From: a virus
Lineage: Duplodnaviria; Caudoviricetes
Virus record (IMG/VR): IMGVR_UViG_3300030330_005822
Coordinates: 1-47,369 of that record
Direction: 5' to 3' (one strand)
Length of the DNA: 47,369 bases
Of this stretch, positions 341-44,548 are shown in pieces; the stretch's first letter is position 1, and each line of letters begins with the position of its first letter. Made by a program: the position numbers and the translations under genes. The notes under the pieces are model-generated. The model was given only the letters and a program-made list of their open reading frames with translations, did not search any database and was not told the origin of the DNA.

Positions 341-380
341 TTACCTTACTGACTTTTCAACAACTCCCCTCCATCCATTC

Positions 381-389
381 TGATATAAT
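381..389 (+). promoter_or_regulatory. Extended -10 promoter element (TGnTATAAT)
   Basis: TGATATAAT upstream of the ATG at 421; a motif copy (351-365) overlaps the expected -35 region. Confidence 0.55.
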
Positions 390-420
390 AGACTCTGTTC
401 ACAAAACGGAGTCTTTTTTT

Positions 421-768
421 ATGGAATCAATCACATCGATACTAACTGAAATACTACCTGCCCTCCTAGCCGGCGGTGGATTGCTTTGGAACTTCTCAAA
501 AGAGATCACCCGGATCCAGGCGCAGCTCCAAGCCTTGCGACATCAAATAGAGGATTGCAAAGGACACATTGAATCGAATAGACAAGGCAGGATTGAAGTC
601 TTTGGAGTCATCAACAGCTCCTTGAAGCCTCAAATCCAAAACGCATCCGAGCGTATTGCCAGATTAGAGGAAAGAGTTCATGGGGGGGTGGATTCAAAAG
701 AGATCTATTCCAGGTTGGCGAGGTTGGAAGCCGAGCTTAATTGCCTTGAAGAGAAAGCAACGAAATAA
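421..768 (+). CDS. Small membrane protein: N-terminal hydrophobic helix plus coiled coil
   Basis: Likely start MESITSILTEILPALLAGGGLLW with GGAG RBS; heptad-like IARLEERV / LARLEAEL; stop abuts the cyclase ATG. Confidence 0.7.
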   Translation: MESITSILTEILPALLAGGGLLWNFSKEITRIQAQLQALRHQIEDCKGHIESNRQGRIEVFGVINSSLKPQIQNASERIARLEERVHGGVDSKEIYSRLARLEAELNCLEEKATK

Positions 769-1611
769 ATGAATCCCATTGAGCCAACCTTTGCGATCAT
801 CGTTGTGATCGACTTAGCCAACTCCACCCGCTTCATTGAGAAAGTAGGAGACAGGAGAGCTGCAGAGGTATTTAGGCTCTATGACCGGATCTTTCGAGGT
901 CTGTTGATCAAGTATGATGGGATTGAAATAGACAAGACTGATGGAGCCCTCCTCATCTTTGAGTCCATCAGGGACGCTGTAAGATATTCATTGGAGTATC
1001 ACAAACTAGTTGAGACCCACCTGCAGCTACAAAGCAGGGTAGGCATTCATGCCGGGATTGTGATGATGAGCTCCAATTCCCAAATATGGGTATCCAGGGG
1101 AGCTAAACCAATCGAGGTGGAGGGCGTTCACAAGTCAATCTGTGCAAGGGTTTGCTCATTAGCTGATCCGGGTCAAACACTAATGACTGAAAGAGCAGCC
1201 CAGGTAGCTATGGCGCACGCCTCCTCAATTGGAGGTCTCCTCTTTGGGAATATGGGGAAGTACATCCTGAAGGGTGTCAAGAATCCGATGGCAATATATG
1301 GGGTGGCATTAAAAGCTCAAAGAGATCGGCTCCACCTCCCTTCTCCTAAAGAGAAAGTCAAGTTGCACTCCCGACCCCCCATATCGACCAAGGAAAAATG
1401 GAAAAGGAGGTTCCGAAGATATGTTATCCCATACCTCCTGCTGCATAGCGTCCGAGCGTATCTCCTGTTGATGTCGATATGGGAGTTTCCATCCGGAATA
1501 ATCAACAAGTCAATCGATCAACTGGATGCGATCATCCACACAATACATTCACTCCCAAATCCGTATTTTTGGATTCAGGTGTGGAGGTCAATATCTGAAT
1601 GGATGATCTAA
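769..1611 (+). CDS. Class III (adenylate/guanylate-type) nucleotidyl cyclase domain with hydrophobic C-terminus
   Basis: IDLANST, IDKTDG, RVGIHAG, ARVCSLADPGQTLM and LKGVKNP match the class III cyclase motif order; basic stretch followed by a hydrophobic helix at the C-terminus. Confidence 0.85.
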   Translation: MNPIEPTFAIIVVIDLANSTRFIEKVGDRRAAEVFRLYDRIFRGLLIKYDGIEIDKTDGALLIFESIRDAVRYSLEYHKLVETHLQLQSRVGIHAGIVMMSSNSQIWVSRGAKPIEVEGVHKSICARVCSLADPGQTLMTERAAQVAMAHASSIGGLLFGNMGKYILKGVKNPMAIYGVALKAQRDRLHLPSPKEKVKLHSRPPISTKEKWKRRFRRYVIPYLLLHSVRAYLLLMSIWEFPSGIINKSIDQLDAIIHTIHSLPNPYFWIQVWRSISEWMI

Positions 1612-2438: not shown

Positions 2439-3026
2439 ATGACTATGCGTATATGTGTAGAGGGTATTATGGGTGCGGGTAAAAGTAGTTTAGTTAATGG
2501 TCTTCGATGCGCCGAAAATTTCAATATTTTTGACGAGGCCGTTATGTTTGATGGTGAAGTGGATAATGGGTTCTTTACTCAGATAAAGTTTTTAAAGTCT
2601 AGACATGATCAATGGAAGTCCTATGCGCCGGATTTTTTCAATGTGTATGACCGATCTGTTTGGTCAGATAGTGTCTTTGCCCGGATTGGTTTATCCTATG
2701 GGGATATCTCTTGTTCTGAGTTTGATCTTTACTTAGCAGCACGCCGAATCTTTCTTGAATCTTCTCCTTTGCCTGATGTGATCTTCTTTCTTGATATCGA
2801 AGCTGAACAAGCTATGAATCGAGTTAAAGCCCGTGGGAATATTGATCAAGATGTTAACTATGGTTTCCTGTTGCGCCAAAAAGTAGCCTATGAACTTTTT
2901 CTTGAAGAGATGGAGGCTAAGGGAGTTGAAGTTGTCTGCATTGATGGCTGCGATTCAAAAGAAAGCATCCTTGAATGCGTAATTACTATGACTAAGGACT
3001 TTTCAACAACTTATGGAGAAAAATAA
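2439..3026 (+). CDS. Deoxynucleoside / dNMP kinase
   Basis: P-loop EGIMGAGKSS, DRSVWSD motif, lid RVKARG. Confidence 0.85.
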   Translation: MTMRICVEGIMGAGKSSLVNGLRCAENFNIFDEAVMFDGEVDNGFFTQIKFLKSRHDQWKSYAPDFFNVYDRSVWSDSVFARIGLSYGDISCSEFDLYLAARRIFLESSPLPDVIFFLDIEAEQAMNRVKARGNIDQDVNYGFLLRQKVAYELFLEEMEAKGVEVVCIDGCDSKESILECVITMTKDFSTTYGEK

Positions 3027-3027
3027 T

Positions 3028-3264: not shown

Positions 3265-4396
3265 TGGTGACTGCTTAGAAGAACTAAAGAAACTTGAGGC
3301 CAACTCAGTACACTCAGTAGTATCTGATCCACCTTACGGACTATCGATAATAAAGTCTTTTCAACAAACCATCCTTACCTGGTTGACTGAAGATGATTCG
3401 TTTATTCCAAAAGGAAAAGGATTTATGGATAAATCATGGGATTCCTTCGTGCCTCCACCTGCCGTATGGAAAGAAGTATATCGAGTCCTTAAACCAGGAG
3501 GACACGCTTTGATTTTCTCAGGTTCAAGAACACAAGACATAATGGGTATCAGCTTAAGACTTGCCGGATTTGAAGTAAGAGATGTTATTCAATGGATATA
3601 TTCAAGCGGTTTTCCAAAATCCCATAACTTAGGCATTGCTGTGGACAAGGTATTGGGAAACGAAAGAACTAATCTAGGGCGCAATCCAAACAGCCGAGAA
3701 AACATTAAGCAAGAGGATTCACTGTACAGACTTGGTACAGCAGGAAAGACAGGTTTTATCACAAAAGGAAGCTCAGATTGGGAGGGGTGGGGTACTGCAC
3801 TTAAACCTGCGTACGAACCTGTGCTTTTAGTTCGGAAACCAATCGAGAGTTCAACTGTAGCTAAGAACTGTATTGAACATGGCGCAGGAGGTCTTAACAT
3901 TGACGCTACTAGGATTGAGTATGATCCGGATGAGAAACTAAGTTGGGGTGTTCAAAGACAGCAACAAAAAGGAGACAATGGGTGGAGTGGTCATGTCGCT
4001 AAGGTAGGCACTGAAATAGAAAGATATAAAGCTAATGGTCGGTTTCCATCGAACGTCATGTTAACCGGAGTTGATGAGGAGTGGAGTAGATACTTTTACT
4101 GTAAAAAAGCAAGTAAGAAAGAAAAGGGTGAAGGCAACATTCATCCTACAGTCAAACCCATTGACCTGATGAAATATCTTTGCAGACTAATTACTCCAAA
4201 AGGAGGCACAATTCTTGACCCATTCATGGGCAGTGGAACCACCGGAATAGCTGCTAACTTAGAAGGTTTCGAGTTCATTGGAATAGAACGTGAAGAGCAG
4301 TATTTCCATATTGCTAAAACAAGGATATCAGAGTATAGTTCAACTGAAGATGAACTCATTGATGGTGAGTACATTCAACTAGACTTATTCGGATGA
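3254..4396 (+). CDS. DNA N6-adenine/N4-cytosine methyltransferase (beta class)
   Basis: Catalytic DPPY near the N-terminus; HPTVKP and SAM-binding DPFMGSGTTG near the C-terminus. Confidence 0.93.
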   Translation: MLINGDCLEELKKLEANSVHSVVSDPPYGLSIIKSFQQTILTWLTEDDSFIPKGKGFMDKSWDSFVPPPAVWKEVYRVLKPGGHALIFSGSRTQDIMGISLRLAGFEVRDVIQWIYSSGFPKSHNLGIAVDKVLGNERTNLGRNPNSRENIKQEDSLYRLGTAGKTGFITKGSSDWEGWGTALKPAYEPVLLVRKPIESSTVAKNCIEHGAGGLNIDATRIEYDPDEKLSWGVQRQQQKGDNGWSGHVAKVGTEIERYKANGRFPSNVMLTGVDEEWSRYFYCKKASKKEKGEGNIHPTVKPIDLMKYLCRLITPKGGTILDPFMGSGTTGIAANLEGFEFIGIEREEQYFHIAKTRISEYSSTEDELIDGEYIQLDLFG

Positions 4397-4890: not shown

Positions 4891-6027
4891 ATGAATGTGG
4901 ATATTACCAAAAAACCTTCCGAACTCACCCATATCTCCCTCTGTTCCGGATACGGAGGAATTGACCTCGGATTTAAACGAGCTGGCTTGCCTATCCGAAC
5001 AGTCACTTATGTGGAGATCGAAACCTTCGTCTGCCAAAACTTGGTTGCGAAGATGGAAAAAGGGTGGATTGATGTCGCTCCTATCTGGACGAATCTTAAA
5101 ACCTTCAATTGGGGACTCTTTAATGGAAAAGTGGATATCCTCAGTGGAGGCTTCCCTTGTCAGCCATTTAGTCAAGCAGGAAGAAGGGATGGAAGTGAAG
5201 ACCCAAGACACCTGTGGCCGTACATCGTTGAAGGAATCAAACAGTTGGGAAGACCTCCCGTTGTTTTCTTTGAAAACGTTGAAGGAATCATCAGCTCAAA
5301 GCTCAAAGGAGACACATGGCTTGACCCAGAAGGAACAAGTGTTCTGCACCATGTCCTCAAAGAGTTGGAAAGATTGGGTTACGAAGCAACGGCAGGCGTA
5401 TTCTCAGCGAGTGAAGTCGGTGCGCCCCATCAACGAAAACGAGTCTTTATACTTGGTGTCAATTCAAGACTCAACAAGCAAGGAAGAGACTTTATTACTT
5501 CAAAACTCTCTAGAGGATTCAGACCTATCTTGGGGGACTCCGAGATCAACGATGAGCACCTACGGCGAGACAGAGGTGTTGACGAAGGAGGGGAAGTTCA
5601 AGAAGGAGTGGCAATTCAGACTAGAGAACCAAGTGTGCGAAATGAAAGATGGATTGCTTACCCCGCAGCAAGAGGAGTTGGTCAATACTCGTGGGAACCT
5701 CCAAGAACAGTCATGGGCCACACCGGCAAGTCGGGATTGGAAGGGGAAGTACCCCAAACACTCTCAAGAAAAGAAACTCCGAAGCTTCCTGCCGGATCAG
5801 GCTCACATCGGTTCGTATGTGGGGAGACTGAATCCTCGTTGGGTAGAGACCTTGATGGGTGTACCAGTGGGGTGGACATCTCCGAATTGTACACACGTAC
5901 TGACAATAGAACAGATGAACTTAGAATGCTTGGAAACGGAGTTGTACCTGCAACATGCACAAGAGCAATCAGAGTCTTGTGGAGCCAATTGGGGCACTCC
6001 TACAACGAGCCAACTTCAGTTAAATGA
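4891..6027 (+). CDS. dcm: C5-cytosine DNA methyltransferase, catalytic (alpha) chain lacking motif IX
   Basis: Motif I LCSGYGG, IV GGFPCQPFS, VI FFENVEG, VIII PHQRKRVFILG, X LRMLGNGVVP; no motif IX in this frame. Confidence 0.92.
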   Translation: MNVDITKKPSELTHISLCSGYGGIDLGFKRAGLPIRTVTYVEIETFVCQNLVAKMEKGWIDVAPIWTNLKTFNWGLFNGKVDILSGGFPCQPFSQAGRRDGSEDPRHLWPYIVEGIKQLGRPPVVFFENVEGIISSKLKGDTWLDPEGTSVLHHVLKELERLGYEATAGVFSASEVGAPHQRKRVFILGVNSRLNKQGRDFITSKLSRGFRPILGDSEINDEHLRRDRGVDEGGEVQEGVAIQTREPSVRNERWIAYPAARGVGQYSWEPPRTVMGHTGKSGLEGEVPQTLSRKETPKLPAGSGSHRFVCGETESSLGRDLDGCTSGVDISELYTRTDNRTDELRMLGNGVVPATCTRAIRVLWSQLGHSYNEPTSVK

Positions 6028-6181
6028 ATCTTTGGGTGCGTACTTGCGAAGATCTAAAAAGAGAATTGATACCGGCAAATCTGTTTTTCCTACTCAGTTG
6101 ACTTTTGAAGTTGAGGCTGAGGAATCCGGAGTAGATATTAAGAAAGAACTAGAAGAACACAAGAAAGTAGTGAACAAATAA
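4895..6181 (+). CDS. Overlapping +1-frame C5-MTase beta chain carrying motif IX and three WxTP modules
   Basis: 428 codons open across the whole MTase gene; RLNPRWVETLMGVPVGWT is motif-IX-like; WGTP (5531), WATP (5714), WGTP (5990). Confidence 0.8.
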   Translation: MWILPKNLPNSPISPSVPDTEELTSDLNELACLSEQSLMWRSKPSSAKTWLRRWKKGGLMSLLSGRILKPSIGDSLMEKWISSVEASLVSHLVKQEEGMEVKTQDTCGRTSLKESNSWEDLPLFSLKTLKESSAQSSKETHGLTQKEQVFCTMSSKSWKDWVTKQRQAYSQRVKSVRPINENESLYLVSIQDSTSKEETLLLQNSLEDSDLSWGTPRSTMSTYGETEVLTKEGKFKKEWQFRLENQVCEMKDGLLTPQQEELVNTRGNLQEQSWATPASRDWKGKYPKHSQEKKLRSFLPDQAHIGSYVGRLNPRWVETLMGVPVGWTSPNCTHVLTIEQMNLECLETELYLQHAQEQSESCGANWGTPTTSQLQLNESLGAYLRRSKKRIDTGKSVFPTQLTFEVEAEESGVDIKKELEEHKKVVNK

Positions 6182-6182: not shown

Positions 6183-6509
6183 ATGAACAAATTACCTACC
6201 CCCATGTCTTTTCAACAACTCATAAACGATGATGACCCTCCACATATCAAAGACCTAATTGAATTGCTTCATGCATTTGCGATGGATTCAGCCCCTATGG
6301 AATTTTTGATGTTTCCAAAAAGATTCAATACCTGCCTGGTAGGTCATACACATCAGGGCAATCCGGTATATGACTATTCTTGCATGATCTCTATTTACTG
6401 TGCAGAGGATAAGATGACTGTTGAAGAGGCTGTTGAGTTTATGGATTACAACGTACTTGGCGTGCGGTATGGAGCTGGTGTCATTCACCCTATCGTGTTA
6501 TTTGTTTAA
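6183..6509 (+). CDS. Conserved phage hypothetical protein
   Basis: VYDY...MTVEEAVEFMDYNVLG pattern, which I recall from aquatic phage hypotheticals. Confidence 0.7.
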   Translation: MNKLPTPMSFQQLINDDDPPHIKDLIELLHAFAMDSAPMEFLMFPKRFNTCLVGHTHQGNPVYDYSCMISIYCAEDKMTVEEAVEFMDYNVLGVRYGAGVIHPIVLFV

Positions 6510-7841: not shown

Positions 7842-8524
7842 AAATCTATACCTTTTTGACTTTTCAACATCTCTTGCATTGTTAATGGAAAAACATTTGC
7901 CAAACACATATAAACACCTTTGGCTACTGATCTAGTTTCATGTTGGGTGTGTTCATCTAGTCTTAGCTTTAGAAACTTAACCCAGTTGAGCAGATTGCCG
8001 GTCATCCAAAACGTTGTGTACATTGACTGCGGTAATATCATTCTAGCTTGTTCTCGACTCACCCCTCCTTCAATCAGCTTATTGAAGTTTGCTAGACAGT
8101 AGTTAGTGTTCTGCACATACAGATCATAAAGACCAAAGTCTTCGATCTCTTCATTAGTTGAACACTGCAAGTTCTTCTTTGCTTGTTTTCTCAATTTTGA
8201 TGGAATATAAAACTGAAGATCCTCTGCTGTATATCGCCGGCTGACTTCATTAAAGGAGAATGTTCTATGACGCATGATTTGAGCCCTACAGAACAAAGGA
8301 CACACTATACGCATCGTTGCAGTCGAATGCTCAAATGGGGAAGTGTGATGCTCCCTGATGAGGAATTGCATCAACTTCAAGTCTCTTTCATTCATATCAC
8401 GATCTAGTGTCTCAGTATCTCTAGCTAATGATACCCTAGCACTTGCCACTGCACGTTGATCGTCTCCCATAAAGTCAATTAGTTCAACGCAACCAATGTT
8501 GTCATCATAAATATCTACTCTCAT
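7838..8524 (-). CDS. thyX: Flavin-dependent thymidylate synthase
   Basis: HTSPFEH, RHRTFSFNEVSRRY (RHRx7S), REQARMILP. Confidence 0.96.
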   Translation of the reverse strand: MRVDIYDDNIGCVELIDFMGDDQRAVASARVSLARDTETLDRDMNERDLKLMQFLIREHHTSPFEHSTATMRIVCPLFCRAQIMRHRTFSFNEVSRRYTAEDLQFYIPSKLRKQAKKNLQCSTNEEIEDFGLYDLYVQNTNYCLANFNKLIEGGVSREQARMILPQSMYTTFWMTGNLLNWVKFLKLRLDEHTQHETRSVAKGVYMCLANVFPLTMQEMLKSQKGIDL

Positions 8525-10000: not shown

Positions 10001-11926
10001 TCACAACTCGCAAGCTCCACCCGTACAAGCAATTTCAAAACTACCTTCACCCATATCGTATTCTTCAAAATCACTGAGCTTAGTGTAATCAATATTTGGA
10101 AAAGTTTTGATTTCCTCTTCATATTGTTCTTGTGTGATTTCCTCATATGGAGCCAACTCATACTTACCTCCATCGTATGGAAGGAAAGATAAGCCAATGA
10201 TGTCATCAAAATTATCCCATACCCATTGGCCTACTTTATCCCAATCATCATTCTTGACATAGATTGTAGCAGACTGATTATGGCCTCGTTTCTTACACCA
10301 GGTATTCATAATTTTTAAGTATCTTTCCATCTGATCGAAAGATGTCTCGTCATCTCTAGTCATGGATCCATCGGGCGATTTTACCGGGAATCTAGCGACC
10401 CAAGTCTTTACTTGATCTTCAGGCAAGTCTTGCTGTCCAACTTCTTTGAACATAGGCACACCTTGACTTTTCAACAAGTCAGATAAAGGATCGTCTGCAC
10501 TTACACGTACGTGTCTAAAGTAATATTTGCTGTATCTAGGATGGAAACCACTTGCACAATCTAACATTTGAGACGTATTACCGCTCGGTTTCCCGCAGGT
10601 GATCGCTGCAGGCATATTGATACCTAATCTACTTGAGGCAACCCTAGCTGTTCTAACTGCAATCTTATTTAACAAAGTAAGGAACTCTGCATTGCCCATC
10701 AGTAATGGATTATCACATTGACCGGTCAAATCCACACCGATCAATCGATCCTCTTGACACAATTCAGTCCAAGTAGGACGCAGGTATGGGAATTTTGTGA
10801 ATGTGGCCTGTAGGCACCCTAACCAGGTTGCTAGGATAACCTTTTTCTTGATATCCTTTGCTGTATCATCGGATCGAACTACAACAGCCGAAAGATTACA
10901 GAATTGCCCGCCTCCACCTTCACCTGTCCATGGATCCACTGCCTCTCTATATCTCAGTCCGATTTCATGGCAAGGATTAGATCTAACTTCACCTTGCGGT
11001 CTAGGAGCTTTTTTCCACCAATTATCTATTGATAGCCCTCGTTCTCCTGCACCCGACTCTGCAAGTTGTGTCCACTCCCGATCAAACACCTCTTTACTTG
11101 GTTTCTCTGCAAAGTATGCGGAGTTGTTTGCCATGTATCTACGCAATGGGAACGCCGCTTTTTTCCAATCCTTGGCGTGTCTCATTTCTACATCGTTTGG
11201 ATCTGAGAAAGAGATCATTGCAGAGCGTCTCACTCCGCCAACAACTACAACCTCTGCTAGTGAGCAGCAGATATCATGGCACTCAATCGGTTTTAGTTTT
11301 CTGCCTGATGCATTTCGGATTGTCTCACGAATAAAATCAATTGCTGCAATTAAGGGTTCGGGTCCACTAGCTCGTCCTCCTTTAGTTTTGAGGATTGACC
11401 CCCTAGGACGAATCAAAGAGTAATCGATTTGAAATGTGTGTCCTTTAAATGCAGAAGTGACAGCAAAGTATACCGCATCTGCCCATCCATCTGATGAGTC
11501 TTGAACTTGATAAATTGTCAAATCCTCTTCAACAGGAAGGGATACGAAAGGTAAGTTTTTTACAAACTTTTCCTCTACAGAAAACCCAACACCGGTTCCT
11601 TGCATGAGGATATAAATCAACTCTGAGAATGCCTTCAGATTATCAATGGGCATAAAAGAGCAATTATAGATAGCTGTGTTGTCTGTTGATGCAAACTCAC
11701 CCGATGCCCACAATGCTCTCATCGAGGGCATGACCTGTTGATTAAGGATGGCTTCTTTTAAATCAATCTTTAATTCTTCATCAATATCTTTAGATTCAAT
11801 TAAAAACTTAGATACCCGGTCAACGGTCTCACTCCAAGTTTCTCTTCTTTTGCTCTCTGGCAACCAACGTGCATAAGAGCGTAGGTATACTAATTCACCG
11901 AGTTGATTTGGGAAATCACTCATCAT
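10001..11926 (-). CDS. nrdJ: Class II (B12-dependent) ribonucleotide reductase
   Basis: YNCSF, GTGVGF, NPCHEI, KPSGNTS and C-terminal CTGGACEL; no beta-subunit gene nearby. Confidence 0.92.
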   Translation of the reverse strand: MMSDFPNQLGELVYLRSYARWLPESKRRETWSETVDRVSKFLIESKDIDEELKIDLKEAILNQQVMPSMRALWASGEFASTDNTAIYNCSFMPIDNLKAFSELIYILMQGTGVGFSVEEKFVKNLPFVSLPVEEDLTIYQVQDSSDGWADAVYFAVTSAFKGHTFQIDYSLIRPRGSILKTKGGRASGPEPLIAAIDFIRETIRNASGRKLKPIECHDICCSLAEVVVVGGVRRSAMISFSDPNDVEMRHAKDWKKAAFPLRRYMANNSAYFAEKPSKEVFDREWTQLAESGAGERGLSIDNWWKKAPRPQGEVRSNPCHEIGLRYREAVDPWTGEGGGGQFCNLSAVVVRSDDTAKDIKKKVILATWLGCLQATFTKFPYLRPTWTELCQEDRLIGVDLTGQCDNPLLMGNAEFLTLLNKIAVRTARVASSRLGINMPAAITCGKPSGNTSQMLDCASGFHPRYSKYYFRHVRVSADDPLSDLLKSQGVPMFKEVGQQDLPEDQVKTWVARFPVKSPDGSMTRDDETSFDQMERYLKIMNTWCKKRGHNQSATIYVKNDDWDKVGQWVWDNFDDIIGLSFLPYDGGKYELAPYEEITQEQYEEEIKTFPNIDYTKLSDFEEYDMGEGSFEIACTGGACEL

Positions 11927-13304: not shown

Positions 13305-13336
13305 GTCTTATCCTTTTTGTTGAAAAGTCATATTAC

Positions 13337-15199: not shown

Positions 15200-16059
15200 T
15201 AGACTTTACCCCCAAAACAAAAATCACAGGCTACACACTCTTTGGCAATTTTACTTCTCGGAGTCTTGCAGTCTTCTAATCGATCCGGGAGAGACTTTGT
15301 GTTTGCAGCTTCTATTGCCACCTGAATGTCAGACAGTATCGGATATATGATGGACATGTCTTTCTTTACAAAGAAATCCATCTCTTCTCCTGTCTCCTTG
15401 TTCACATATAGAATGATTGCGCCTTCAATTTCACCGCATTCTTCTAGATCATTAGGAGCAAAGCAGTAAAGCATGGCTTGCTTAACATGATAGTCTCTAG
15501 GAAACTTAGATACCGACTTGATGTACTTGAATGAATTAGAATTGCTGCTCTTAATCTCTAATACGTACCACTTCCCATCAATGAAGACAATTCCATCAAC
15601 GTACCCACTCATCCTCTTTTCCGGCCACTTCATTCTGGGTTCTTTATACTCCCATCTTTCGCCTGGATAAAATCCTTCAACAACCATATTTTGGTTGTCC
15701 TTATTTATCCATTTACCATAAAGACATCCTGCTTTTGCTAGTATGTCATTTTGATACATATCGTGAATCATATGACCATGATCGAATACCCGCAGCAGTG
15801 AAGTCTTATGTGGGTCTGCCAACCTAAGCTTGGCTCCAAAATCATCTCGGTTCATAATGATTGAATACTTGCGAGGGCAAACAGGATTGTATCCGACCGA
15901 TGATGGATGGAAACGAGTCATCTTTTCCATAATGACATCGTAATTCCGATCATTTGCTTTTTTCAGATAAAACTGTTCTATCTTAGGAAGTATGGAGGGA
16001 CTGTTAGTCTCCTCTTGATTGTGAATCATTTTAAACAAGTTATTAAGACTCATTTTCAT
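15199..16059 (-). CDS. Cas4-like PD-(D/E)XK exonuclease
   Basis: FHPSS..CPRK, GHMIH, GYVDG, LEIKS, QAMLY, C-terminal C...CVACDFC. Confidence 0.85.
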   Translation of the reverse strand: MKMSLNNLFKMIHNQEETNSPSILPKIEQFYLKKANDRNYDVIMEKMTRFHPSSVGYNPVCPRKYSIIMNRDDFGAKLRLADPHKTSLLRVFDHGHMIHDMYQNDILAKAGCLYGKWINKDNQNMVVEGFYPGERWEYKEPRMKWPEKRMSGYVDGIVFIDGKWYVLEIKSSNSNSFKYIKSVSKFPRDYHVKQAMLYCFAPNDLEECGEIEGAIILYVNKETGEEMDFFVKKDMSIIYPILSDIQVAIEAANTKSLPDRLEDCKTPRSKIAKECVACDFCFGGKV

Positions 16060-16927
16060 ATCCTCCCCACAGATTTAAACAGTCCGGCCCAGTTAATCGT
16101 TCAAGTGCCGTATTGAGTAAGTTAAGATCCTTGTTTGACATACCTGTAAAGTCAATTGACTTCATTGCAATCTTAAACTTGTAGTATCCTGTCTCGTTCT
16201 TAAATAGCGATCCTAAATTAGTAAACATATTATTAATTGAGTTAGCCAATACTTCGTTGTCTACTTCGTCTTCATCGATAAACAGACGCTCCACATCATC
16301 ATCGTCATCAATCTCAATAATGTCGTCATCATCTTCAGGTATATACTCTAGTAGCTCATCCACTTTTTCTCTTAATGCTTTCGCAGTTGTACCCACTTTA
16401 GCCAATTCAATTAGCTCTGGGTGATACTCCTCTGGAGCTTGGTTAATTGCTCTAGCTTGATTAACTGAGATTAAATCATATTTAAGAGAGTGGATGATCT
16501 CATCTGTCATCTCTAGTAAAGCCAATCGTTGACTAACTAATGTTTTAGACCAACCGAGCTCTTTTCTGAATTCGTTTACATCTCGTCCCAGGTTTTGGAT
16601 GCGTTGGATTGCCAACGCCTCTTCCATCGGGTTAAGGTTTTTTCTACTCACATTTTCTTGAAGATTCATAATGAGTAATTCAGATTCATCTAAATCATTC
16701 ATTATCCGACAATCAATTTCCGCCCATTGCAACCGAGTAGCTGCGGTGAACCTCCTAAATCCGTAAACAAGGCCATATCGCCCCGACTCAGTTTCACAAA
16801 CACCGATTGGATTATTTAGACCTGATGTAGCCATACTTTCGCTTAAATCTTCAACATCAATATTAACTCGTGAGTTGGTAATTAGATTTAAATCAATTTG
16901 ATCGAGTCTTATCTTTTTCACTTTCAT
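16043..16927 (-). CDS. parB: ParB/Spo0J-family protein
   Basis: GLNNPIGV, LVYGFRRFTAA, ENVSRKNLNPMEEA, HTH LGWSKTLVSQRLALL; AAGGA RBS before ATG 16927. Confidence 0.88.
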   Translation of the reverse strand: MKVKKIRLDQIDLNLITNSRVNIDVEDLSESMATSGLNNPIGVCETESGRYGLVYGFRRFTAATRLQWAEIDCRIMNDLDESELLIMNLQENVSRKNLNPMEEALAIQRIQNLGRDVNEFRKELGWSKTLVSQRLALLEMTDEIIHSLKYDLISVNQARAINQAPEEYHPELIELAKVGTTAKALREKVDELLEYIPEDDDDIIEIDDDDDVERLFIDEDEVDNEVLANSINNMFTNLGSLFKNETGYYKFKIAMKSIDFTGMSNKDLNLLNTALERLTGPDCLNLWGGYENES

Positions 16928-19689: not shown

Positions 19690-20949
19690 CTAATTAAATA
19701 GTATATTGTACCCTAGTTTTGTGTAAGTCTTTTTTCTAGCACCCCAATATGCGTTTAGAATACCTATCTTTGGATCAACGACATCCAATACTACCGGGTC
19801 TTTTTTATCAGGTGCATCACGTAAGATGCGTCCTACCGACTGAGTTATTGAAGTTTTTGGTGTAGCTAGTATCAAAGTGTCTAAAGCGGGTATATCTAAA
19901 CCCTCTTGAGCCATTGCATACGTACCTACAATAACATCTGCCTTAGCCGACTCTTCCCTGGCCCCTTGACTCATTCCTCCGATATACAGATCAACTGAAA
20001 AGTCAGATTCCTCAAAGTCTTTAGACAAGATAGTCTTCATCTCTTTTACATGAGCTACACGCTCACTTAGAATAAGAACCTTACGCCCTTTGAGGAGAGC
20101 TCTCTTTGTCATGCGTATGATAAGATCGGTGCGATCCTCTATTTTAGATAAATCTGTAATCATCTTTGAAGTGTTAACGTCCCCATTCCAAAGTTTAGGG
20201 ATCTTCATGCTGCACTCTGTGTTTATTCTCCAGATAGTCGGTATTCTCTTGTGTCCTTCCATCTCATACACAATCGGACCAATGTGGAGAAACAGGGCTT
20301 TTTGCATCCCATCTTTGCGCTCTGGTGTAGCAGTCAATCCTACTCGATATGCAGAGTCAAATCGACCAAAAGCATTTTGCCACATCGGTGCAGCGTACCG
20401 GTGCGTTTCATCTGCAATAACAGTCCCAAACAAGTCATACGTTTCTGCCGGGTACTCTCGTTTGCAGATTGATTGCACCATCGCAATCACGATATCTTCT
20501 GTGCCATCAGGGACCGTATCTCTTTGCCATATTCCAATCTTAGCTTGAGGTAAGAATGTGTTTGCACGTTCGATCCATTGATCAACCAGAAACTCTTTAT
20601 GCACAAGCACAAGTGTCTTTCTTCCTAATTTCCTAGCAATCTCTAAACCCATTACTGTCTTACCCCTACCACAAGGAGCAAACAGGATTGCCCCCTTCGG
20701 TGGCTCATCCAGGTATTCGATTACCGCTTTGACTGCCGGCACTTGATAATCTCTAAGAGAGATCGGCTCAATCATTGGGTTCATCATCTCACCGAGCATA
20801 CTTGTTGAAAAGTCAACATATTTGAATTGCTCGAAGCCACGAGGCACATAGTATTTGCCTTGGCACTTTGCAAACAACTCCATACCGTTTAAAGTCAATA
20901 CACCCTTAGTTTCTTTGTTAAAATTAGGATGTAAAGCCCAACCCTTCAT
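19690..20949 (-). CDS. Superfamily 2 DExH helicase
   Basis: LRDYQ, APCGRGKT, DETH, GLTATPER, EGLDIP, QSVGRILR. Confidence 0.93.
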   Translation of the reverse strand: MKGWALHPNFNKETKGVLTLNGMELFAKCQGKYYVPRGFEQFKYVDFSTSMLGEMMNPMIEPISLRDYQVPAVKAVIEYLDEPPKGAILFAPCGRGKTVMGLEIARKLGRKTLVLVHKEFLVDQWIERANTFLPQAKIGIWQRDTVPDGTEDIVIAMVQSICKREYPAETYDLFGTVIADETHRYAAPMWQNAFGRFDSAYRVGLTATPERKDGMQKALFLHIGPIVYEMEGHKRIPTIWRINTECSMKIPKLWNGDVNTSKMITDLSKIEDRTDLIIRMTKRALLKGRKVLILSERVAHVKEMKTILSKDFEESDFSVDLYIGGMSQGAREESAKADVIVGTYAMAQEGLDIPALDTLILATPKTSITQSVGRILRDAPDKKDPVVLDVVDPKIGILNAYWGARKKTYTKLGYNILFN

Positions 20950-22772
20950 TTTGCCTCACCCCATGACTTCCCTATGGCGGGCTCTGCAATCAAAGGAACG
21001 ATAAGCTTGACACAATTTTCCATCTCAAACTTTAGAATATCTGATACCTGTTCACTAATTTCCTCTTTAGCCTCTACAACTACTTCATCGTGAACCTGGC
21101 AAACAATTCTTACATCATCTCGTGTGTACCCTTCTTCTCTTACTCTTCTGATAAAGTTTCTCATGCCGATCTTGATGATGTCTGCTGCACTTCCTTGGAC
21201 TTGCGTATTGATTGCCTGCCGCTCTGCTTTTGATCGGTTGAATGAATCCCCTAAGTTTATTTGTGTGAGCTTTCTAATGCGTCCTGTGATAGTCCAAACA
21301 TAACCCTTATCTCTTACCTTCTTGATTAGCTTTTGATGAAAACTCACAACGCCGGCATAGTTTGCAAAGTATTTATCAGAATACGACTGAGCCTCAGATA
21401 CTGACACACCCAACATTTTACTAAGTGTCTTAGCACCCATTTTGTAGATCAACCCGAAGTTAATGCCCTTTGCGTGGAATCGAGAACATCCACATGCATC
21501 TGCTGTCATTTGATGAATATCTCCATTCTCTTGATAAACAGTACACATAACAGGATCCTTCGATAAGTGTGCCATGACTCTCAATTCAACTTGAGAGTAG
21601 TCAGCTACAATCAATTCATACCCATCCTCTGCAATGAAGGACCTTCTCAGTAAATCGCCCTCTTTTGTTCTACTAGATGGAATGTTTTGTAAGTTTGGTT
21701 TAGATGAGGACATACGACCTGTGTCTGTACCGAACTGATTGAATGACCCATGAATGCGGTCTTGTGAATCCGTGTATATAGGCAACTTTTCACAGTATGT
21801 GGAAAGCATTTTAGATAACTGTCGGTATTCCAGAACTAGTTTAGCCAGTGATCTCCCGATTATGGATGTACCAGGTATTGCACCTTCTGCCCACTTCTCT
21901 AAATGCTCATTAGCTGTCGAATAAAATCCACTCTTGCCACGAGGCACACCCTTTGTCCCCCAATAGTTATCACATAACTTTTTGCTCAACCATTGAGACG
22001 AGCCAATCTGTGCGTCATCACCTAAGATTGCACAAAATTTATCTGTAATAGACTTGAGGCGTTCTCTCATGACAATACTTGCCTCTTTTACTTGTGCAAC
22101 ATCAAACTTAAACCCATAGTGCTCCATCTCTTCTAAGATGTACATCACCGGCATCTCTAGTTCATTCAAGACCTTTAGTTGGGATTCGTTTAGTTGGGGT
22201 AGCAACTCTGTTTGCAGTTTATATAGATACACTGCATCATCAATTGCATACTTACCCATCGTTGAAACAGGCACATATTCATTGCCGCCAAAACCTTTTG
22301 TGACTTGATCAAATGTGGTCATGTCATAACCAAAATATTCTCTTACTAAGGTCTTTAGACCATGACCACCGTTCTTACCTGGATCAATCAACCAAGAGAC
22401 ACATAGTGTATCAATCACCGTAGCTTTGATGTCTTGAGGATCGATTCCTTCATTGCGTAAGGTCTTGATGTCAAACTTAGCATTGTGAATATATATTGTC
22501 TTACTAGCGTCAAAAAACAGACTTTTCAACAACTCTAAGACAACATCTGATGGACAGTTTTTTGGTGGGATTGCGAATAGATCAAACCCTGCCTCGTGCC
22601 GGGTAGGAAAGTAGAATCCTTCCAATTTGCCTTTATGCTCTATAGCCAAAGAACAGCCGATCATCTTGCGATCAAACATCAGCCCATTTGTCTCAGTATC
22701 AAAAGCAATTTTGTCTGCAGCTAATATCTTTTCTTTTATTAAATCTAAATCTTCTTTTGTATCAATTATCAT
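20946..22772 (-). CDS. polA: Family A DNA polymerase with 3'-5' exonuclease
   Basis: DTET, HNAKFD, YAIDDA; TGRMSSSKPNLQNIP, ADYSQVELR, KGINFGLIY, QVHDE. Confidence 0.96.
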   Translation of the reverse strand: MIIDTKEDLDLIKEKILAADKIAFDTETNGLMFDRKMIGCSLAIEHKGKLEGFYFPTRHEAGFDLFAIPPKNCPSDVVLELLKSLFFDASKTIYIHNAKFDIKTLRNEGIDPQDIKATVIDTLCVSWLIDPGKNGGHGLKTLVREYFGYDMTTFDQVTKGFGGNEYVPVSTMGKYAIDDAVYLYKLQTELLPQLNESQLKVLNELEMPVMYILEEMEHYGFKFDVAQVKEASIVMRERLKSITDKFCAILGDDAQIGSSQWLSKKLCDNYWGTKGVPRGKSGFYSTANEHLEKWAEGAIPGTSIIGRSLAKLVLEYRQLSKMLSTYCEKLPIYTDSQDRIHGSFNQFGTDTGRMSSSKPNLQNIPSSRTKEGDLLRRSFIAEDGYELIVADYSQVELRVMAHLSKDPVMCTVYQENGDIHQMTADACGCSRFHAKGINFGLIYKMGAKTLSKMLGVSVSEAQSYSDKYFANYAGVVSFHQKLIKKVRDKGYVWTITGRIRKLTQINLGDSFNRSKAERQAINTQVQGSAADIIKIGMRNFIRRVREEGYTRDDVRIVCQVHDEVVVEAKEEISEQVSDILKFEMENCVKLIVPLIAEPAIGKSWGEAK

Positions 22773-25952: not shown

Positions 25953-26303
25953 TTATCCATATCGTTTGATGTCATAGTCAAATAAAACCACGCCATCTGT
26001 TAAGTGTATTGGGTTGTCCACAACTAGGTGAACCGCCCTTTTGCTTTGTCTTAAATTGTGTATGCAAGAACGCATTGTGTCGAATCGTTTGTATTCATAC
26101 CCGCTAAGCAGCGGATTTGGTTCTTCATCAATGTAGATGATCACAGGCTTAAGAAAATATGTCATAGACCATAGCCAATCTTGTCTTTTCAACAAGTATT
26201 TTTTAGGCCCAATGAGCAGTTTTCTGCCCTGATACTCAAGAAGGACTTCAGAGTGAATCCAAAGAGTCATAGGGAGTGTATTTGCTAGATCTCCCTTGAT
26301 CAT
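25953..26303 (-). CDS. Hypothetical protein
   Basis: 116-aa ORF coupled (ATGA) to the loader gene. Confidence 0.7.
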   Translation of the reverse strand: MIKGDLANTLPMTLWIHSEVLLEYQGRKLLIGPKKYLLKRQDWLWSMTYFLKPVIIYIDEEPNPLLSGYEYKRFDTMRSCIHNLRQSKRAVHLVVDNPIHLTDGVVLFDYDIKRYG

Positions 26304-27183: not shown

Positions 27184-28026
27184 CTACCATCCTACATGGT
27201 CTTGAGGTTTATCCTCTTTTTTAAAGTGTGATCCCCATCTAGGAGAATCATGTAGACCCCCATCTATAACCAGGGGAAAGAATGAATTTCTAAATCCAAA
27301 GAATATCGGCATAGAAGGATATCCTTTGATGTTAAATTGAGTCTTTATAGTATCCCAATTCTCAATAATTTGCTTCATTACATTTGCAGTGTTTTCACTT
27401 CCGTATTGTTCAATCAATTGCTTAGCGTGTCCTAAATCACGTTTAGTAAATCTAGGTGGAGGTGTTTTCCATCCCTTAGCCTTCCAAGCTGCACCTAACA
27501 CGAACTCCATATCTTTTGAATTATACTCGGTTGGTGACTTTTCAACAAATGCCTGTAGTTTTTTCCAATGTGCCGGTTTGGTTTGAACAGGAACACGACC
27601 TTTAGATCGATCTCTAGCCAAATCCATCCCGGCATCAATAAGTGCTTTTAGCTCGTTTTGAGACTTAGGTGGCTCTGATTCCTGAAGGTCTCTTTGATCA
27701 TCAGGGATCTTTGCTACATGCTTAATTGCATTCATAAGTGGAGTCCAATCATATGTGTTGCCACGCTTCTTGTCTTGCACTTGAACGAGGTAGTCTTTAG
27801 CGCATAGGCTTCGTAGATACATTCGGATTGTTTGATCTGATTTACCCGTTTTATCACTCAACCACTTCGTACCTGGAAAAGGATTTTGACCAAGCCATGC
27901 ATAGTCTAGGATATGCATAACCAGGAGAGCTTCCTCCATCGTGATATTTAGATCTCGGTAATGTCCAAGCAAAGCACGAGATACACCCGCAAACCCTTTT
28001 TCTTCAACTCCGTTCCAATTAATCAT
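27184..28026 (-). CDS. Replication-initiator-like protein (DnaD-type N-terminal winged helix)
   Basis: LLGHYRDLNITMEE..LVMHIL, FPGTKWLSDKTGKSDQTIRMYLRSL; upstream of the DnaC/DnaB/primase genes. Confidence 0.72.
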   Translation of the reverse strand: MINWNGVEEKGFAGVSRALLGHYRDLNITMEEALLVMHILDYAWLGQNPFPGTKWLSDKTGKSDQTIRMYLRSLCAKDYLVQVQDKKRGNTYDWTPLMNAIKHVAKIPDDQRDLQESEPPKSQNELKALIDAGMDLARDRSKGRVPVQTKPAHWKKLQAFVEKSPTEYNSKDMEFVLGAAWKAKGWKTPPPRFTKRDLGHAKQLIEQYGSENTANVMKQIIENWDTIKTQFNIKGYPSMPIFFGFRNSFFPLVIDGGLHDSPRWGSHFKKEDKPQDHVGW

Positions 28027-28600: not shown

Positions 28601-28672
28601 TTTGTCCTACACTTATCTACATGAATATAAAAAACAGACTTTTCAACAACTTTTCTGAAAAAACCTGGAGAT

Positions 28673-28786: not shown

Positions 28787-28790
28787 TTGT

Positions 28791-29318: not shown

Positions 29319-30689
29319 TTATGCAGTTAATGATGCATAAATGATATCAACGACATCACTAGTTTCTAAATCATATGAACCACTAGCAGCGGGATTCCAA
29401 TACAAAACATCTCCTGCAACGATAGCATTCAAAGCACGAGCACTTGAACCACTATCAGCAGAGAAAAAGCATTGAGAAGAAGTTGCTGCACCCAGGTTAG
29501 CTTTGATTCCGTTTACAAATACAGATACTGCACCACCTGTAGGCACAGTAATACCAGATGGGATCGCAAGTCCTGTGGTTCCTGTTGAACTAGATACCGC
29601 CGAAGGGCTTTGTCCTAATCGATCAGTACGTAAAACAGGAGCTACCAACCCCGTTGAAGTCACACTAACTGAGTTTTCACTGTTAAGCTGTACAGAAAGT
29701 CCGTTGGAGTCTGAAGTCAAAGAGTTTCCATCTTTTTTAATTCGGAATTCACCGCTATTTAACTCAAGGCCACCGGTTGAATTCAATCTAACAGAGTAAA
29801 CTCCCGCTGATCCAAGAAACCCATTAGCGGTAGGTAGGCTTTTATTCAAAATGGTTCCAATACTGAATTGAACATTGTTTGTTCCATCAAAACCAAAGTA
29901 TCTGGGCGTAGTTGCAGAAGAGATTGACCCTGCTGCTAAAGTGGTGTGATCTAGCTTAATTCCACTTGCAGACACAGAAAGTCCAGAGTGAGATGAAACC
30001 GGTGCTACAGATAGTGTGTCGCCTGATTTAGATAAACCGTTTCCGGCAGTGATTGAACCCGCTCCGGAGAATTGTTGAAAAGTCAAATCACTAGAGTCAA
30101 GAGTAATCGTTTCGTTTGTAGTTAATACCCATCCTGTATCTTTATAATTTGTACCTTCTTCAACAAAGAAAAAGTTATTTGCAGAGATGTCGGCTGTAGC
30201 ATCAAAATCTCCTGCACGAGTTAAGACAAAAGAAGTTAAATTTCCATCACCTGTTGCAGTTAAAGTATAAACTCCGTTTTCGGTTTGTGTTGATTGACTT
30301 TGAACCAAAACTCGATTACCTACAACAACAGCAACCCCATCAATAGTCACGTTAAGTGTTGATGTTGGTGAAGTTAATGTTAATGAAGAACTAGAGTATG
30401 TCCAATTGTCAAAATAAGAATCAACATCTATAGCTCGAACTGATTGTTTAACTTCGAGTCCAGAGCCGGCAACACTGTCAACATAAGCTTTGTTAGCTAC
30501 ATCAGTATTGTTTGATGGAGTGCCTGCTTGTAGTGTAGCTGAAGAAAAGTCGTATGTTTGACTTGTAAGATCCATCTTAGATGGAATAATAGCCTCTGCA
30601 GCAATTTTAGCTGTCGTAATCGATAAATCAGCAATTTTCGCTGAACTGATCGCACTATCGGCGAGTTGTTTTCCTTTAATTAAAGCCAT
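29319..30689 (-). CDS. Tail fibre / virion structural protein
   Basis: ANKAYVD..GL.VK.SVRA, IDGV...GNRVLV..Q....ENGVY, FFVEEGT, AGNGLSKSG; S/T/G-rich. Confidence 0.8.
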   Translation of the reverse strand: MALIKGKQLADSAISSAKIADLSITTAKIAAEAIIPSKMDLTSQTYDFSSATLQAGTPSNNTDVANKAYVDSVAGSGLEVKQSVRAIDVDSYFDNWTYSSSSLTLTSPTSTLNVTIDGVAVVVGNRVLVQSQSTQTENGVYTLTATGDGNLTSFVLTRAGDFDATADISANNFFFVEEGTNYKDTGWVLTTNETITLDSSDLTFQQFSGAGSITAGNGLSKSGDTLSVAPVSSHSGLSVSASGIKLDHTTLAAGSISSATTPRYFGFDGTNNVQFSIGTILNKSLPTANGFLGSAGVYSVRLNSTGGLELNSGEFRIKKDGNSLTSDSNGLSVQLNSENSVSVTSTGLVAPVLRTDRLGQSPSAVSSSTGTTGLAIPSGITVPTGGAVSVFVNGIKANLGAATSSQCFFSADSGSSARALNAIVAGDVLYWNPAASGSYDLETSDVVDIIYASLTA

Positions 30690-36753: not shown

Positions 36754-37007
36754 TTTTCAGTTGTTCCTTGTAAGCAGTAATTAAGAGAATCCATGAGCTC
36801 CTGCTCGAACGCCATCCGTTCTTGCATCCAGCCTTTGGATACTTTAAATGATCCATCTTCAAGTTCTATGATTTCTGACTTTTCAACAACTATGACATGA
36901 TCTTTAGGATCTTTGGGATTGTTTCTGTTTGGCTTCTCGCAATAAGGCCCGCAGCCGATAATCATGGCTACCCCAAGCGACAGCAACATCTTCGTCAGAC
37001 TCGGCAT
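36750..37007 (-). CDS. Lipoprotein, o-spanin (Rz1)-like
   Basis: Signal MPSLTKMLLSLGVAMIIG-C with lipobox; starts inside the upstream TM gene in another frame (start 37028/37007/36989 uncertain). Confidence 0.62.
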   Translation of the reverse strand: MPSLTKMLLSLGVAMIIGCGPYCEKPNRNNPKDPKDHVIVVEKSEIIELEDGSFKVSKGWMQERMAFEQELMDSLNYCLQGTTEK

Positions 37008-42530: not shown

Positions 42531-42532
42531 TC

Positions 42533-43108
42533 TTAACTCCTGTTGATTGAGAAGGCAATATCAATTGTTCTTTGAATTGTTAGTGTGTTGTCTTTTTGGA
42601 TAAGTGGATGTGTGATCCAATTAAACATGATACCTGAGTCTAGACTAGATGTCGCATTACCCCCAAAAAGGCCGAACTCTCTAAGGTCTCCGTTGGCATC
42701 CGCCGTACCTAGTGTGTAAGACACTTTGAATCGACTTGAGAGTGCTTGGGGATTTAGTGCAGCTCCGGTACTTGCGTCTAGGAAAGTAAAGTCGTTTGGA
42801 GACAATGAGAATCTAAACGTTTCTGTTTGTAGGGTTGTTTGAGTAGTTGGTTTAACTACGTTAGATGGGTCTGCATCCCAGGTTGACTGACCAGAACCAA
42901 CCGCCAAAAAAGTGATTGCTCCAAGGTTAGCCACCGGGGGTGAAGCCATGTTTGAAGAATCTGTTAGTAATCCTGTAATTAGATTCAATGAAGAGTCTTG
43001 TACTTGGTTAAAACGAAAAGGACGCACTTCTTTTCTTGTTAGCCCGATTGAGTTCTTCCAAATCAATGTATCTTGATACTTTCCTATTATATGTAATTTG
43101 CAATCCAT
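42533..43108 (-). CDS. Baseplate / tail-collar protein
   Basis: ITFLAVGSG, TTLQTETFR, ANGDLREFGLFGG, IQKD. Confidence 0.72.
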   Translation of the reverse strand: MDCKLHIIGKYQDTLIWKNSIGLTRKEVRPFRFNQVQDSSLNLITGLLTDSSNMASPPVANLGAITFLAVGSGQSTWDADPSNVVKPTTQTTLQTETFRFSLSPNDFTFLDASTGAALNPQALSSRFKVSYTLGTADANGDLREFGLFGGNATSSLDSGIMFNWITHPLIQKDNTLTIQRTIDIAFSINRS

Positions 43109-43111
43109 TTT

Positions 43112-44548
43112 TTATCCTATAGCTGCATGGGGAAGTCTTGCGATATCTGTTACTCCGCTCGTCCAAGTCCCGTTCTGTGCCAATGAAATATTCGAGTCTG
43201 GATGGGGGTATGTGTGCAGGCTTCCTACGTTCCAAGAGGTTGTAATAGTTTCAACTATATTGAGCTCTGATGAATCAGGTACTCTCAAATCATCCTGGTG
43301 TGATTCGGTAAATGATAACACAAAATTTTCTAAATTGTAGTCATCAACTTGTATGTGTGCATTGGCATAATGAATGAGAAGATAACTAATGAGTCGTCTT
43401 AACTTGTTTTTAGCTAAATCAGATATCAATGGATCTTCATCACTAATTTGTGAAATCAACTGTACTAGCACTCCATAGGGATTGCGCCAACCATGTAATT
43501 CATTTTCTGCAATAACTCGATAGTTATCTGTAGATCTTCCTTGGATACGAACTGAGCCTGGATCAGCAAGGTTTACCGTTCCGTTGAATGGCATTGCATT
43601 GACAATATCTGCCCAAACCCCATCTGTTGATTCAACCCATCCTGTTGGGGGTGTGTTTGGATCATGCACATCCTCCCCGCCGTATGTGCTCAGTACGTAG
43701 TTATGGCCTTCTACTAGCTCAGTATCCCAACCTGTTAAAGTCTGTGCAGCAAACTCTACATTAAGAGCAGTGCTCTTCTTTTTCCAAAGCGTGATTGCAT
43801 TAGCTGTTTCTTTACGCCGCCGAAGCTCCCGTAGCTCAAAATTGGTTGGCCAACCTAGCATCTGATCGATGTATGGAAGTAGGTGCGCATCAACATTGGC
43901 AATATCAAACATATTAGCTGAGAAGTGATCCAGGTGTTGTTTGAACTCATCTAGGGCTTTACCCATGATTTGATCAATCTTACTTATTGTGTCATCACCC
44001 TCGGATTCATCTAAAAGTCGAATGCCCACAGGCAAATAGTTGAATAGCCTATTGCCATAGGTGGATTCACCATTCTTTAACACAAAAGCTCGGTCATGCC
44101 CATGTATTGAGGAGTATGCCCAAACATTCGTATCATCAACAGTTCTTGTTAGCTCATAGAAGACAGTATAATACCAAACGTTCTGTTTTCCCGATGCTTC
44201 ATGGTCTACATAATCTAGATAAACATCTCGATCTCCACTTAAAGTTGTTGAAAAGACAACATCCGCAGTAGAATCAGCAGCAGAGCGTGGAAACTCTTTC
44301 TTCTTCTTTAGGAGTTTCACATTACCTGTCAAAGTAAAGCCAACCGGATTTGATGGAAAACCATATCGGACTCGATTGTGTTCTCCTGTTACTCCTGTAG
44401 TTGGTTGATTCGGATCAAGGATTGCTCCATTGTTTAAAGCACTCTGTTCTACAATTAATGGGATCTTTGCGCCCAGAGCAGGCACGTTGATTACATCGCT
44501 TCCCTTTTCTTTTACAAAAGAAAATTGCCACTGCTCATGTGTCGCCAT
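43112..44548 (-). CDS. Baseplate wedge protein, P2 gpI-like domain
   Basis: LFNYLP, LLPYIDQMLGW, RRKETANAITLWKKKST; follows baseplate J. Confidence 0.78.
   Translation of the reverse strand: MATHEQWQFSFVKEKGSDVINVPALGAKIPLIVEQSALNNGAILDPNQPTTGVTGEHNRVRYGFPSNPVGFTLTGNVKLLKKKKEFPRSAADSTADVVFSTTLSGDRDVYLDYVDHEASGKQNVWYYTVFYELTRTVDDTNVWAYSSIHGHDRAFVLKNGESTYGNRLFNYLPVGIRLLDESEGDDTISKIDQIMGKALDEFKQHLDHFSANMFDIANVDAHLLPYIDQMLGWPTNFELRELRRRKETANAITLWKKKSTALNVEFAAQTLTGWDTELVEGHNYVLSTYGGEDVHDPNTPPTGWVESTDGVWADIVNAMPFNGTVNLADPGSVRIQGRSTDNYRVIAENELHGWRNPYGVLVQLISQISDEDPLISDLAKNKLRRLISYLLIHYANAHIQVDDYNLENFVLSFTESHQDDLRVPDSSELNIVETITTSWNVGSLHTYPHPDSNISLAQNGTWTSGVTDIARLPHAAIG

Follow-up and report, generated by a model that had tools for sequence, protein, structure and literature searches.

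Dispersed sites in a marine myovirus genome

We analysed a 47,369-nucleotide stretch of tailed-phage DNA (IMG/VR record IMGVR_UViG_3300030330_005822, positions 1 to 47,369; hereafter the window), in which a short word recurs on both strands and which encodes an orphan ParB protein, the predicted reader of that word. The window is a 47-kb piece of a marine myovirus genome of about 82 kb; a contig approximately 95% identical to it has 81,677 bp, and the complete genome of a relative, G004, measures 84,945 bp. Its genes encode PolA, DnaB, a DnaC-like loader, primase, a DnaD-like initiator, RecA, a class II ribonucleotide reductase, ThyX and PhoH, together with SpoVS, a TGT-like protein, methylases, ParB and baseplate proteins.

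A pattern search of the window returned 17 sites, 11 on the plus and 6 on the minus strand, of which 16 match G[AT]CTTTTCAACA exactly and the other, GAGTTTTCAACA at 18470, is a GAG variant; the first-pass annotation had reported the same count, and its 16 of 17 exact 12-bp core matches were reproduced on recounting. The sites are as follows.

351..365, plus strand: site upstream of a probable start at 421
2997..3011, plus strand: deoxynucleoside kinase gene, 3' end; position retained in G003, G001 and G005
3355..3369, plus strand: site within the N6/N4 methylase gene
6206..6220, plus strand: site close to the 5' end of open reading frame (ORF) 6183-6509
7858..7872, plus strand: site at the thyX 3' end, upstream of a probable XRE start; kept in G003
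10465..10479, plus strand: site within the ribonucleotide reductase gene; kept in G003, G001 and G005
13315..13329, minus strand: intergenic, upstream of the TGT-like gene; also retained in G003 and L140
16947..16961, minus strand: candidate operator for autoregulation of parB, 20-34 bp upstream of its start codon
18467..18481, minus strand: GAG... variant at the start of recA; not present in relatives
20800..20814, minus strand: site within the SF2 helicase gene; the same place in G006 has that genome's own variant
22520..22534, plus strand: site within polA; absent in G003
26183..26197, plus strand: site within ORF 25953-26303
27536..27550, plus strand: site within the DnaD-like initiator gene; decayed in G003
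28637..28651, plus strand: intergenic site adjoining an AT-rich inverted-repeat region
30070..30084, minus strand: site within a virion/tail-fibre gene; kept in G003
36877..36891, plus strand: site within ORF 36750-37028; position retained in 6 of 7 records, where the G006 variant turns IVVEKS into IVVDKS
44243..44257, minus strand: site within a baseplate gene; kept in G003

With one mismatch allowed, we observed 18 matches against 1.15 expected from 100 dinucleotide shuffles (maximum 5). Similarly, codon-preserving shuffling that kept all proteins (1000 rounds) produced a mean of 0.94 exact 12-mers and a maximum of 4, against the 16 observed, and k-mer ranking placed the word far ahead of every other 10- and 12-mer in the window. 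An earlier estimate of far less than one chance copy had assumed 38% guanine plus cytosine (GC); the actual value is 40.3%, and the enrichment is real. The gaps, previously described as mostly 1-4 kb, span 0.36-7.4 kb. The copies had been placed inside genes: the frames read as SFQQL, DFST, LLKS and VEKS were upheld, but the sites at 13315, 16947 and 28637 lie outside any ORF, as does that at 351 if the gene starts at 421. Eight of the 17 sites lie near gene ends, against a background of 18%, which may reflect permissive space; the remainder are gene-internal, many of them deep.

The conserved stretch covers about 16 bases, with no conservation in the flanks. Within it, the 14-bp core, ACTTTTC followed by AACAACT, forms an imperfect dyad about its central C/A step. 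The word had been called non-palindromic, which describes the window tolerably (8 of 14 positions symmetric) but not G006 (10 of 14) or G004 (12 of 14). In the window, 10 of 17 sites are co-oriented with the local gene (p = 0.63), as first reported, and in G001 10 of 20 are co-oriented with transcription. This lack of polarity bears out the distinction drawn earlier from Chi and from stoperators. Mycobacteriophage stoperators are polar and are read by the immunity repressor; they share with the present sites a similar word length and many dispersed copies, but the latter are indifferent to strand. With its GC value, ORF placement, dyad and gaps corrected, the original observation stands as a whole.

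Phage context and relatives

Relatives carry labels of the type G001, or L140 and L169, and metagenome loci were read as pieces of at most 21 kb. Most proteins of the relative G003 are 57-97% identical to those of the window. Sequencing runs holding at least half of the sampled window words were marine metagenomes (3 rows, two of which are possible sources), with no RNA run among the listed holders. A search for a close cultured relative gave 41 weak matches, none covering 80%. Among 185,579 species genomes there was one match, a 24-kb contig of phage genes in a metagenome-assembled genome labelled Chitinophagales; this contig (L195 / G012:C29) belongs to the present phage family and is probably mis-binned. 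One exact 14-base pattern had no match in the Chitinophagales-labelled bin. Neither an integrase nor a ParA was found among the 58 G004 proteins without a window homologue (a few border-spanning ORFs being left out), from which we infer a lytic life style.

Selection on DNA and turnover of the sites

We then compared the sites between genomes. Silent third codon positions were identical between the window and G003 at 47 of 51 positions within sites, against 4948 of 8728 (57%) outside them; the former count takes in the site upstream of parB, for which an ORF was extended. Together with the codon shuffle, this silent-position conservation supports the earlier proposal that selection acts on the DNA rather than the protein.

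Among alignable window sites, the 12-bp core is kept at 9 of 12 in G003, 3 of 11 in G001 and 4 of 13 in G005; the counts are 2 of 9 in G006 (with its own variant), 0 of 10 in G004, 0 of 5 in G002 and 0 of 7 in G007. Each genome nevertheless contains 6-22 sites (12-20 in G003, G001, G005 and G004), or one per 2.8-7.1 kb: the places turn over and the density is maintained. Furthermore, the gaps vary less than random in G001, G005, G003 and G004 (p = 0.0004-0.008), that is, in 4 of 8 genomes at p < 0.01.

The same 14-bp word, or a variant of it that recurs across the genome, is present in nine relatives with GC contents of 37-58%. De novo k-mer scans recovered ACTTTTCAACAACT in G001, G002, G003 and G005, and the variants AGTTTTCAAWAACT in G004, ACTTGTCAACAACT in G006, GTTTTTCAAAAACT in L169 and GTTTGTCAAKAAC in G007; ACTTTTCAACATCT is among the sites of G012. 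At two homologous places the G006 variant replaces the word itself, changing IVVEKS to IVVDKS and DFSTSM to DLSTTL. Such concerted change of all copies would be expected from a single trans-acting reader. These results support a genome-wide, orientation-free protein-binding array, as predicted by the first-pass annotation, and ParB loading appears the best fit among the candidates that it listed.

The orphan ParB protein

The parB gene and the parts of its product are as follows.

16043..16927, minus strand: orphan ParB, 294 aa, start ATG at 16927 (Pfam, alignment and structure model)
ParB domains: CTPase N-domain, helix-turn-helix (HTH), acidic linker (about residues 196-220), three-helix C-terminal domain

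With the start at 16927, the site at 16947 lies upstream of parB and outside it. Pfam identified ParB_N and HTH_ParB (HTH_ParB E 1e-9). A single-sequence scan of viral contigs with this ParB returned nothing; an alignment-based scan found the homologues, 50 in total at 34-100% identity, of which 37 were aligned. The profile matches Noc, Spo0J/ParB and KorB, the best match among solved structures being Noc (E 4e-28), and the structure model, with a predicted local distance difference test (pLDDT) score of 81.5, gave Foldseek matches to ParB, Noc and KorB. The TGT-like gene (11916-13304, possible base modification) and the SpoVS gene (14479-14751), both on the minus strand, accompany parB throughout the clade.

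Invariant in all 37 homologues are N18, R20, S31, G36, G56-F-R-R59, E91, N92 and R95, as well as the helix residues K128, T129, Q133 and R134. Mapped through the Noc alignment, these include the residues of boxes I-III that bind cytidine triphosphate (CTP), namely R20, S31, G36, R58, R59, N92 and R95. In Caulobacter ParB, loss of any of the seven corresponding residues blocks CTP binding, according to the accessible part of PMC8367383. The position of the catalytic glutamate is Phe in 37 of 37 homologues. The same partial source (PMC8367383) describes Caulobacter ParB E102A as binding CTP and closing its clamp with no hydrolysis. Given the Phe in every homologue, clamps of the phage protein may unload slowly, and long-lived clamps are plausible by analogy, although plasmid ParBs lacking this Glu also occur. 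CTP binding, clamp closure and sliding would be expected of the phage ParB from its likeness to characterized family members.

The four specificity positions (K128, R134, E139 and N156 in the Noc alignment) read K-R-E-N. Known codes at these positions are RTAG for ParB and QKKR for Noc in the available text of PMC7383237, and the difference leads us to expect a new binding site. The acidic linker has 16 D or E among 27 residues. The C-terminal domain consists of three conserved helices (pLDDT 82); its best structural match has Z 6.0, with no ParB domain among the matches listed. The ParA-binding peptide, searched with the motif given in the accessible part of PMC12704722, was found in 0 of 37 homologues, and there is no N-terminal amphipathic membrane helix, the protein beginning at the first strand of the CTPase fold in both alignment and model. 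No ParA ATPase was found among the 62 proteins of the window, itself a fragment, and none of 5 relatives, of which two are complete, has a match to the ParA domain PF13614.

ParB as the predicted reader

Several lines of evidence connect this ParB with the sites. At 18 of 37 loci, that of the window included, the interval -150..+45 around the parB start contains a family site, which is inverted in three cases; the matrix adds two loci. Matrix matches number 19-55 per 100 kb in the ten records with this ParB helix, 2-6 in G010 and G013-G015 with a diverged ParB, 2.6 in G018, where the N-domain alone matched, and 0-3 in six records in which parB was not found. A pattern-first scan of all viral contigs yielded 77 loci on 65 contigs, and 7 of the 8 contigs with at least two sites belong to the family, the outsider having 2 sites in 92 kb; among single-site contigs, 1 of 57 does. 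Three further records, G025-G027, have two sites and no parB in the stretches read, which do not span the parB region. On this comparative evidence, the phage's own ParB probably reads the sites.

The G004 lineage has diverged more in its DNA-binding domain (62 and 57 of 98 identical, against 76 of 98) than in its N-domain (57-61 of 97). Two of the four specificity positions of G006 are occupied by residues unseen in eight ParBs with the canonical site. As a specificity signal, these divergences are suggestive only.

Other observations weigh against ParB as the reader or against the tests used for it. By pattern, 19 of the 37 parB loci have no upstream site, including those of the array-bearing G002, G006, G007, G012 and L169. 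Retention is also not confined to parB: the start of the gene at 36403 keeps its site in 6 of 7 records, and other gene starts do so in 6 of 16, 5 of 16 and 3 of 7, most genes scoring 0-2. All of the ten positive records except G003 and G012, eight in total, had served to train the matrix, and the parB-less controls are distant, GC-rich and incomplete, several with other dispersed palindromes. Reversed-sequence control runs gave 1-8 matches in array genomes, which is not a clean null, since the word resembles its own mirror image. G010 and G013-G015 have a ParB but no array of any word tied to it. Even spacing was not significant in the window (p = 0.087), G002, G006 or G007, and the per-genome patterns for that test were picked after inspection of the data. 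The motif variants cluster on the ParB tree (6 changes against 11.2 when shuffled), but they fit the genome tree equally well. Single-residue codes also failed: an Arg-to-G rule (R159) and a helix-position rule (L130) break down on L142, L146 and G006. Finally, the G007 word shows a strand bias (19 versus 3) and includes a perfect -35 hexamer; it may simply represent a promoter consensus.

An apparent discordance between ParB and genome, based on an exonuclease tree, vanished when 40 of 67 genes were found to group G005 with G001. Since kin share labels and these genes give the same grouping, a change of ParB is inseparable from a host shift. The variants track phage phylogeny as host shifts would, which is compatible with a word read by a host nucleoid or segregation protein (Noc-, SlmA- or MatP-like, or a host ParB), the phage mimicking host sites and the variants marking different hosts. 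Unrelated phages of the same host would then be expected to share the site, but multi-site contigs are nearly confined to the family; the same word persists across 37-58% GC, and a site is kept at parB. We regard a host reader as improbable.

Dispersed words of other kinds occur among the more distant records. In G010, where GFCR replaces GFRR in ParB, AAAAAACGG occurs 81 times, 75 of them on the plus strand and often just before start codons. G019 has 20 copies of GTGC-N8-GCAC, and G016, G022 and G011/G023 have dispersed palindromes, the words in G016, G022 and G011 being CACGTG-centred; no parB was found in any of these.

Promoter elements and other candidate readers

TTGAAA/TTGACA, on the opposite strand of one half-site, resembles the -35 hexamer, and the word might therefore be a promoter element, an extended -35 box read by a host or phage sigma factor. 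The enrichment near gene ends would suit such a role. So would a related word in the distant G014 that is followed by a -10 box in 9 of 9 cases, a high-scoring word in G013, and the region upstream of the homologue of 22794-23483, where the word in G001, G004 and G005 occupies roughly the position of a TTGACA promoter in G003. Against this, no -10 box at 16-18 bp accompanies any of the 17 sites in the window or those of G001, G002, G003 or G005 (the counts in G004 and G007 are 3 of 12 and 2 of 22), the flanks are not conserved, orientation is random and many sites lie deep inside genes. A promoter function for the word as such is highly unlikely. The single parB-upstream site of G010 overlaps a -35 box, and the family site may be an operator that coincides with -35 boxes in some locations and whose copies have spread beyond promoters.

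At about 28270-28305 on the minus strand of the window, TTGACA, a 17-bp spacer and CATACT make up a probable sigma-70 promoter of the replication operon. Its -35 region resembles the family word, and the promoter is kept in G003 and G006.

Host DnaA titration had been suggested because the word core is one mismatch from a DnaA box. TTWTNCACA boxes are not enriched in the window (6 against 5.4 expected) or in the other array-bearing genomes, and 0 of 132 family sites contain one, a count that is partly circular as the matrix fixes that position. Other phage proteins are conceivable readers, as MerR-like and SpoVS genes are present in array-bearing records; yet both are also present in the array-less G010 and G013-G015, the MerR-like helix varies freely among genomes with an identical word, and G002 has the word although its initiator has no winged helix. 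Distribution and helix variation thus disfavour the XRE, MerR-like and initiator proteins proposed earlier, and there is little to recommend either DnaA or another phage protein as the reader. Within the earlier interpretation, the array and ParB loading are supported, but DnaA titration and full non-palindromicity are not. An XRE protein and a sigma factor were rejected as readers, being found only in the window and G003 among seven relatives. The consensus of IHF includes an ATCAA core. This core is in 0 of 132 family sites (again partly circular through the matrix), and an IHF site was likewise rejected.

Comparison with known ParB systems

KorB of plasmid RK2 is a ParB-family CTP clamp that represses over long range by sliding, with 12 OB sites according to a title cited in PMC11790492, a source available in part. 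The phage system is like it in its multiple dispersed operators at and far from promoters, here 17 sites in 47 kb, and in a ParB whose profile and fold match KorB. It differs in its setting: in the accessible portion of PMC11790492, KorB has an IncC (ParA) partner, a clamp-locking co-repressor in KorA, a conjugative plasmid as replicon and a 16-bp OB, whereas here the replicon is a tailed phage, no ParA was found, the site is an asymmetric 14-bp dyad and no KorA-like partner was identified, no search having been aimed at KorA.

With Noc and its NBS sites, as described in the available parts of 10.1101/2021.02.11.430593 and PMC7383237, the phage system shares an orphan ParB paralogue and sites scattered round the replicon; it differs by the missing N-terminal amphipathic helix and by K-R-E-N in place of QKKR. 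Compared with chromosomal ParB-parS, for which we rely on the accessible text of PMC7383237, PMC8367383 and PMC12704722, the seven CTP-binding residues of Caulobacter ParB have invariant counterparts and the domain order is the same. The differences are that no ParA or ParA-binding peptide was found, that the Q58/E102 positions are N/F, that the code is not RTAG, that the C-terminal domain has no clear structural match, and that the sites are spread (evenly in 4 of 8 genomes) rather than clustered at an origin or par operon. The phage system would work like KorB/OB or Noc/NBS, and belongs to neither parABS nor Noc.

Proposed mechanism and alternatives

We put a probability of roughly 0.7 on KorB-like tiling by the phage ParB, with promoter control and genome organization, a reading built on analogy with these systems. 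The missing ParA, ParA peptide and Noc-type membrane helix make KorB-like tiling likelier than partition, and the lack of peptide and helix argues against both partition and nucleoid occlusion. From the biochemistry of ParB, Noc and KorB, a ParB dimer would read both half-sites of the 14-bp dyad, and after loading, CTP would close it into a sliding clamp (PMC12704722, PMC8367383, PMC11790492 and 10.1101/2021.02.11.430593, in the parts available). Clamps spreading from each site could cover the whole genome of about 82 kb; this occupancy would damp or time sigma-70 promoters, that of parB included, and the coverage would also organize replicating DNA. Regulatory output is the least secure step, and repression of promoters as in the KorB regulon would be expected by analogy.

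A related possibility is that the lytic phage builds a nucleoid of its own, in which a hydrolysis-poor ParB coats the genome, excludes sigma-70 and shields the DNA or marks it as self, the evenly spaced marks having evolved from -35 boxes; we consider this unlikely. Alternatively, ParB might read the sites in order to mark self, by recruiting the TGT-like enzyme or methylases to phage DNA or by shielding it from host nucleases. The TGT-like gene was found wherever a ParB-bearing record covers its locus and in no parB-less record, and ParB-fold partners of phage DNA-modifying enzymes exist (PMC13229309, seen in part). The co-occurrence, however, represents one lineage and is shared with SpoVS and other genes, and the ParBs in the accessible part of PMC13229309 have no DNA-binding domain, unlike the phage ParB. 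Self-marking is accordingly very unlikely.

Orphan ParBs are common on mobile elements, mostly with no known sites or function, according to the available sections of PMC12704722. In the literature searched, which took in few subscription papers and no supplements, we found neither a phage for which this word is described nor a lytic phage with ParB sites spread over its genome; the supplements of PMC12704722 may list such proteins. The present family offers a candidate site, the new code K-R-E-N, natural site variants and a natural substitution of the catalytic Glu, so that the function of an orphan phage ParB becomes testable with one protein and a few oligonucleotides. If the proposal is correct, it would provide new orthogonal ParB-site pairs for DNA labelling, and would represent a way of coating the genome in phages where neither an integrase nor a partition ATPase is seen.

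Additional features

The site at 28637 adjoins an AT-rich region (28660-28790) flanked by ACGTACGT-type inverted repeats, a candidate origin or genome-end element. A second type of candidate origin is found in relatives: clusters of the repeat AAAATCTATCGAT, absent from the window, lie in G001 (17434-17535 and 32571), G004 (37273-37365) and G005 (55374-55490 and 40396), between two conserved genes and upstream of the initiator operon, and are candidate iterons.

The ORF at 769-1611 (plus strand) resembles a class III nucleotide cyclase by inspection, with no Pfam match at E 0.01, and has homologues in G001, G004, G005 and G006. A second long frame at 4895-6181 (plus strand) runs the length of the C5 methylase gene at 4891-6027 (plus strand), and both frames have matches in G001-G005.

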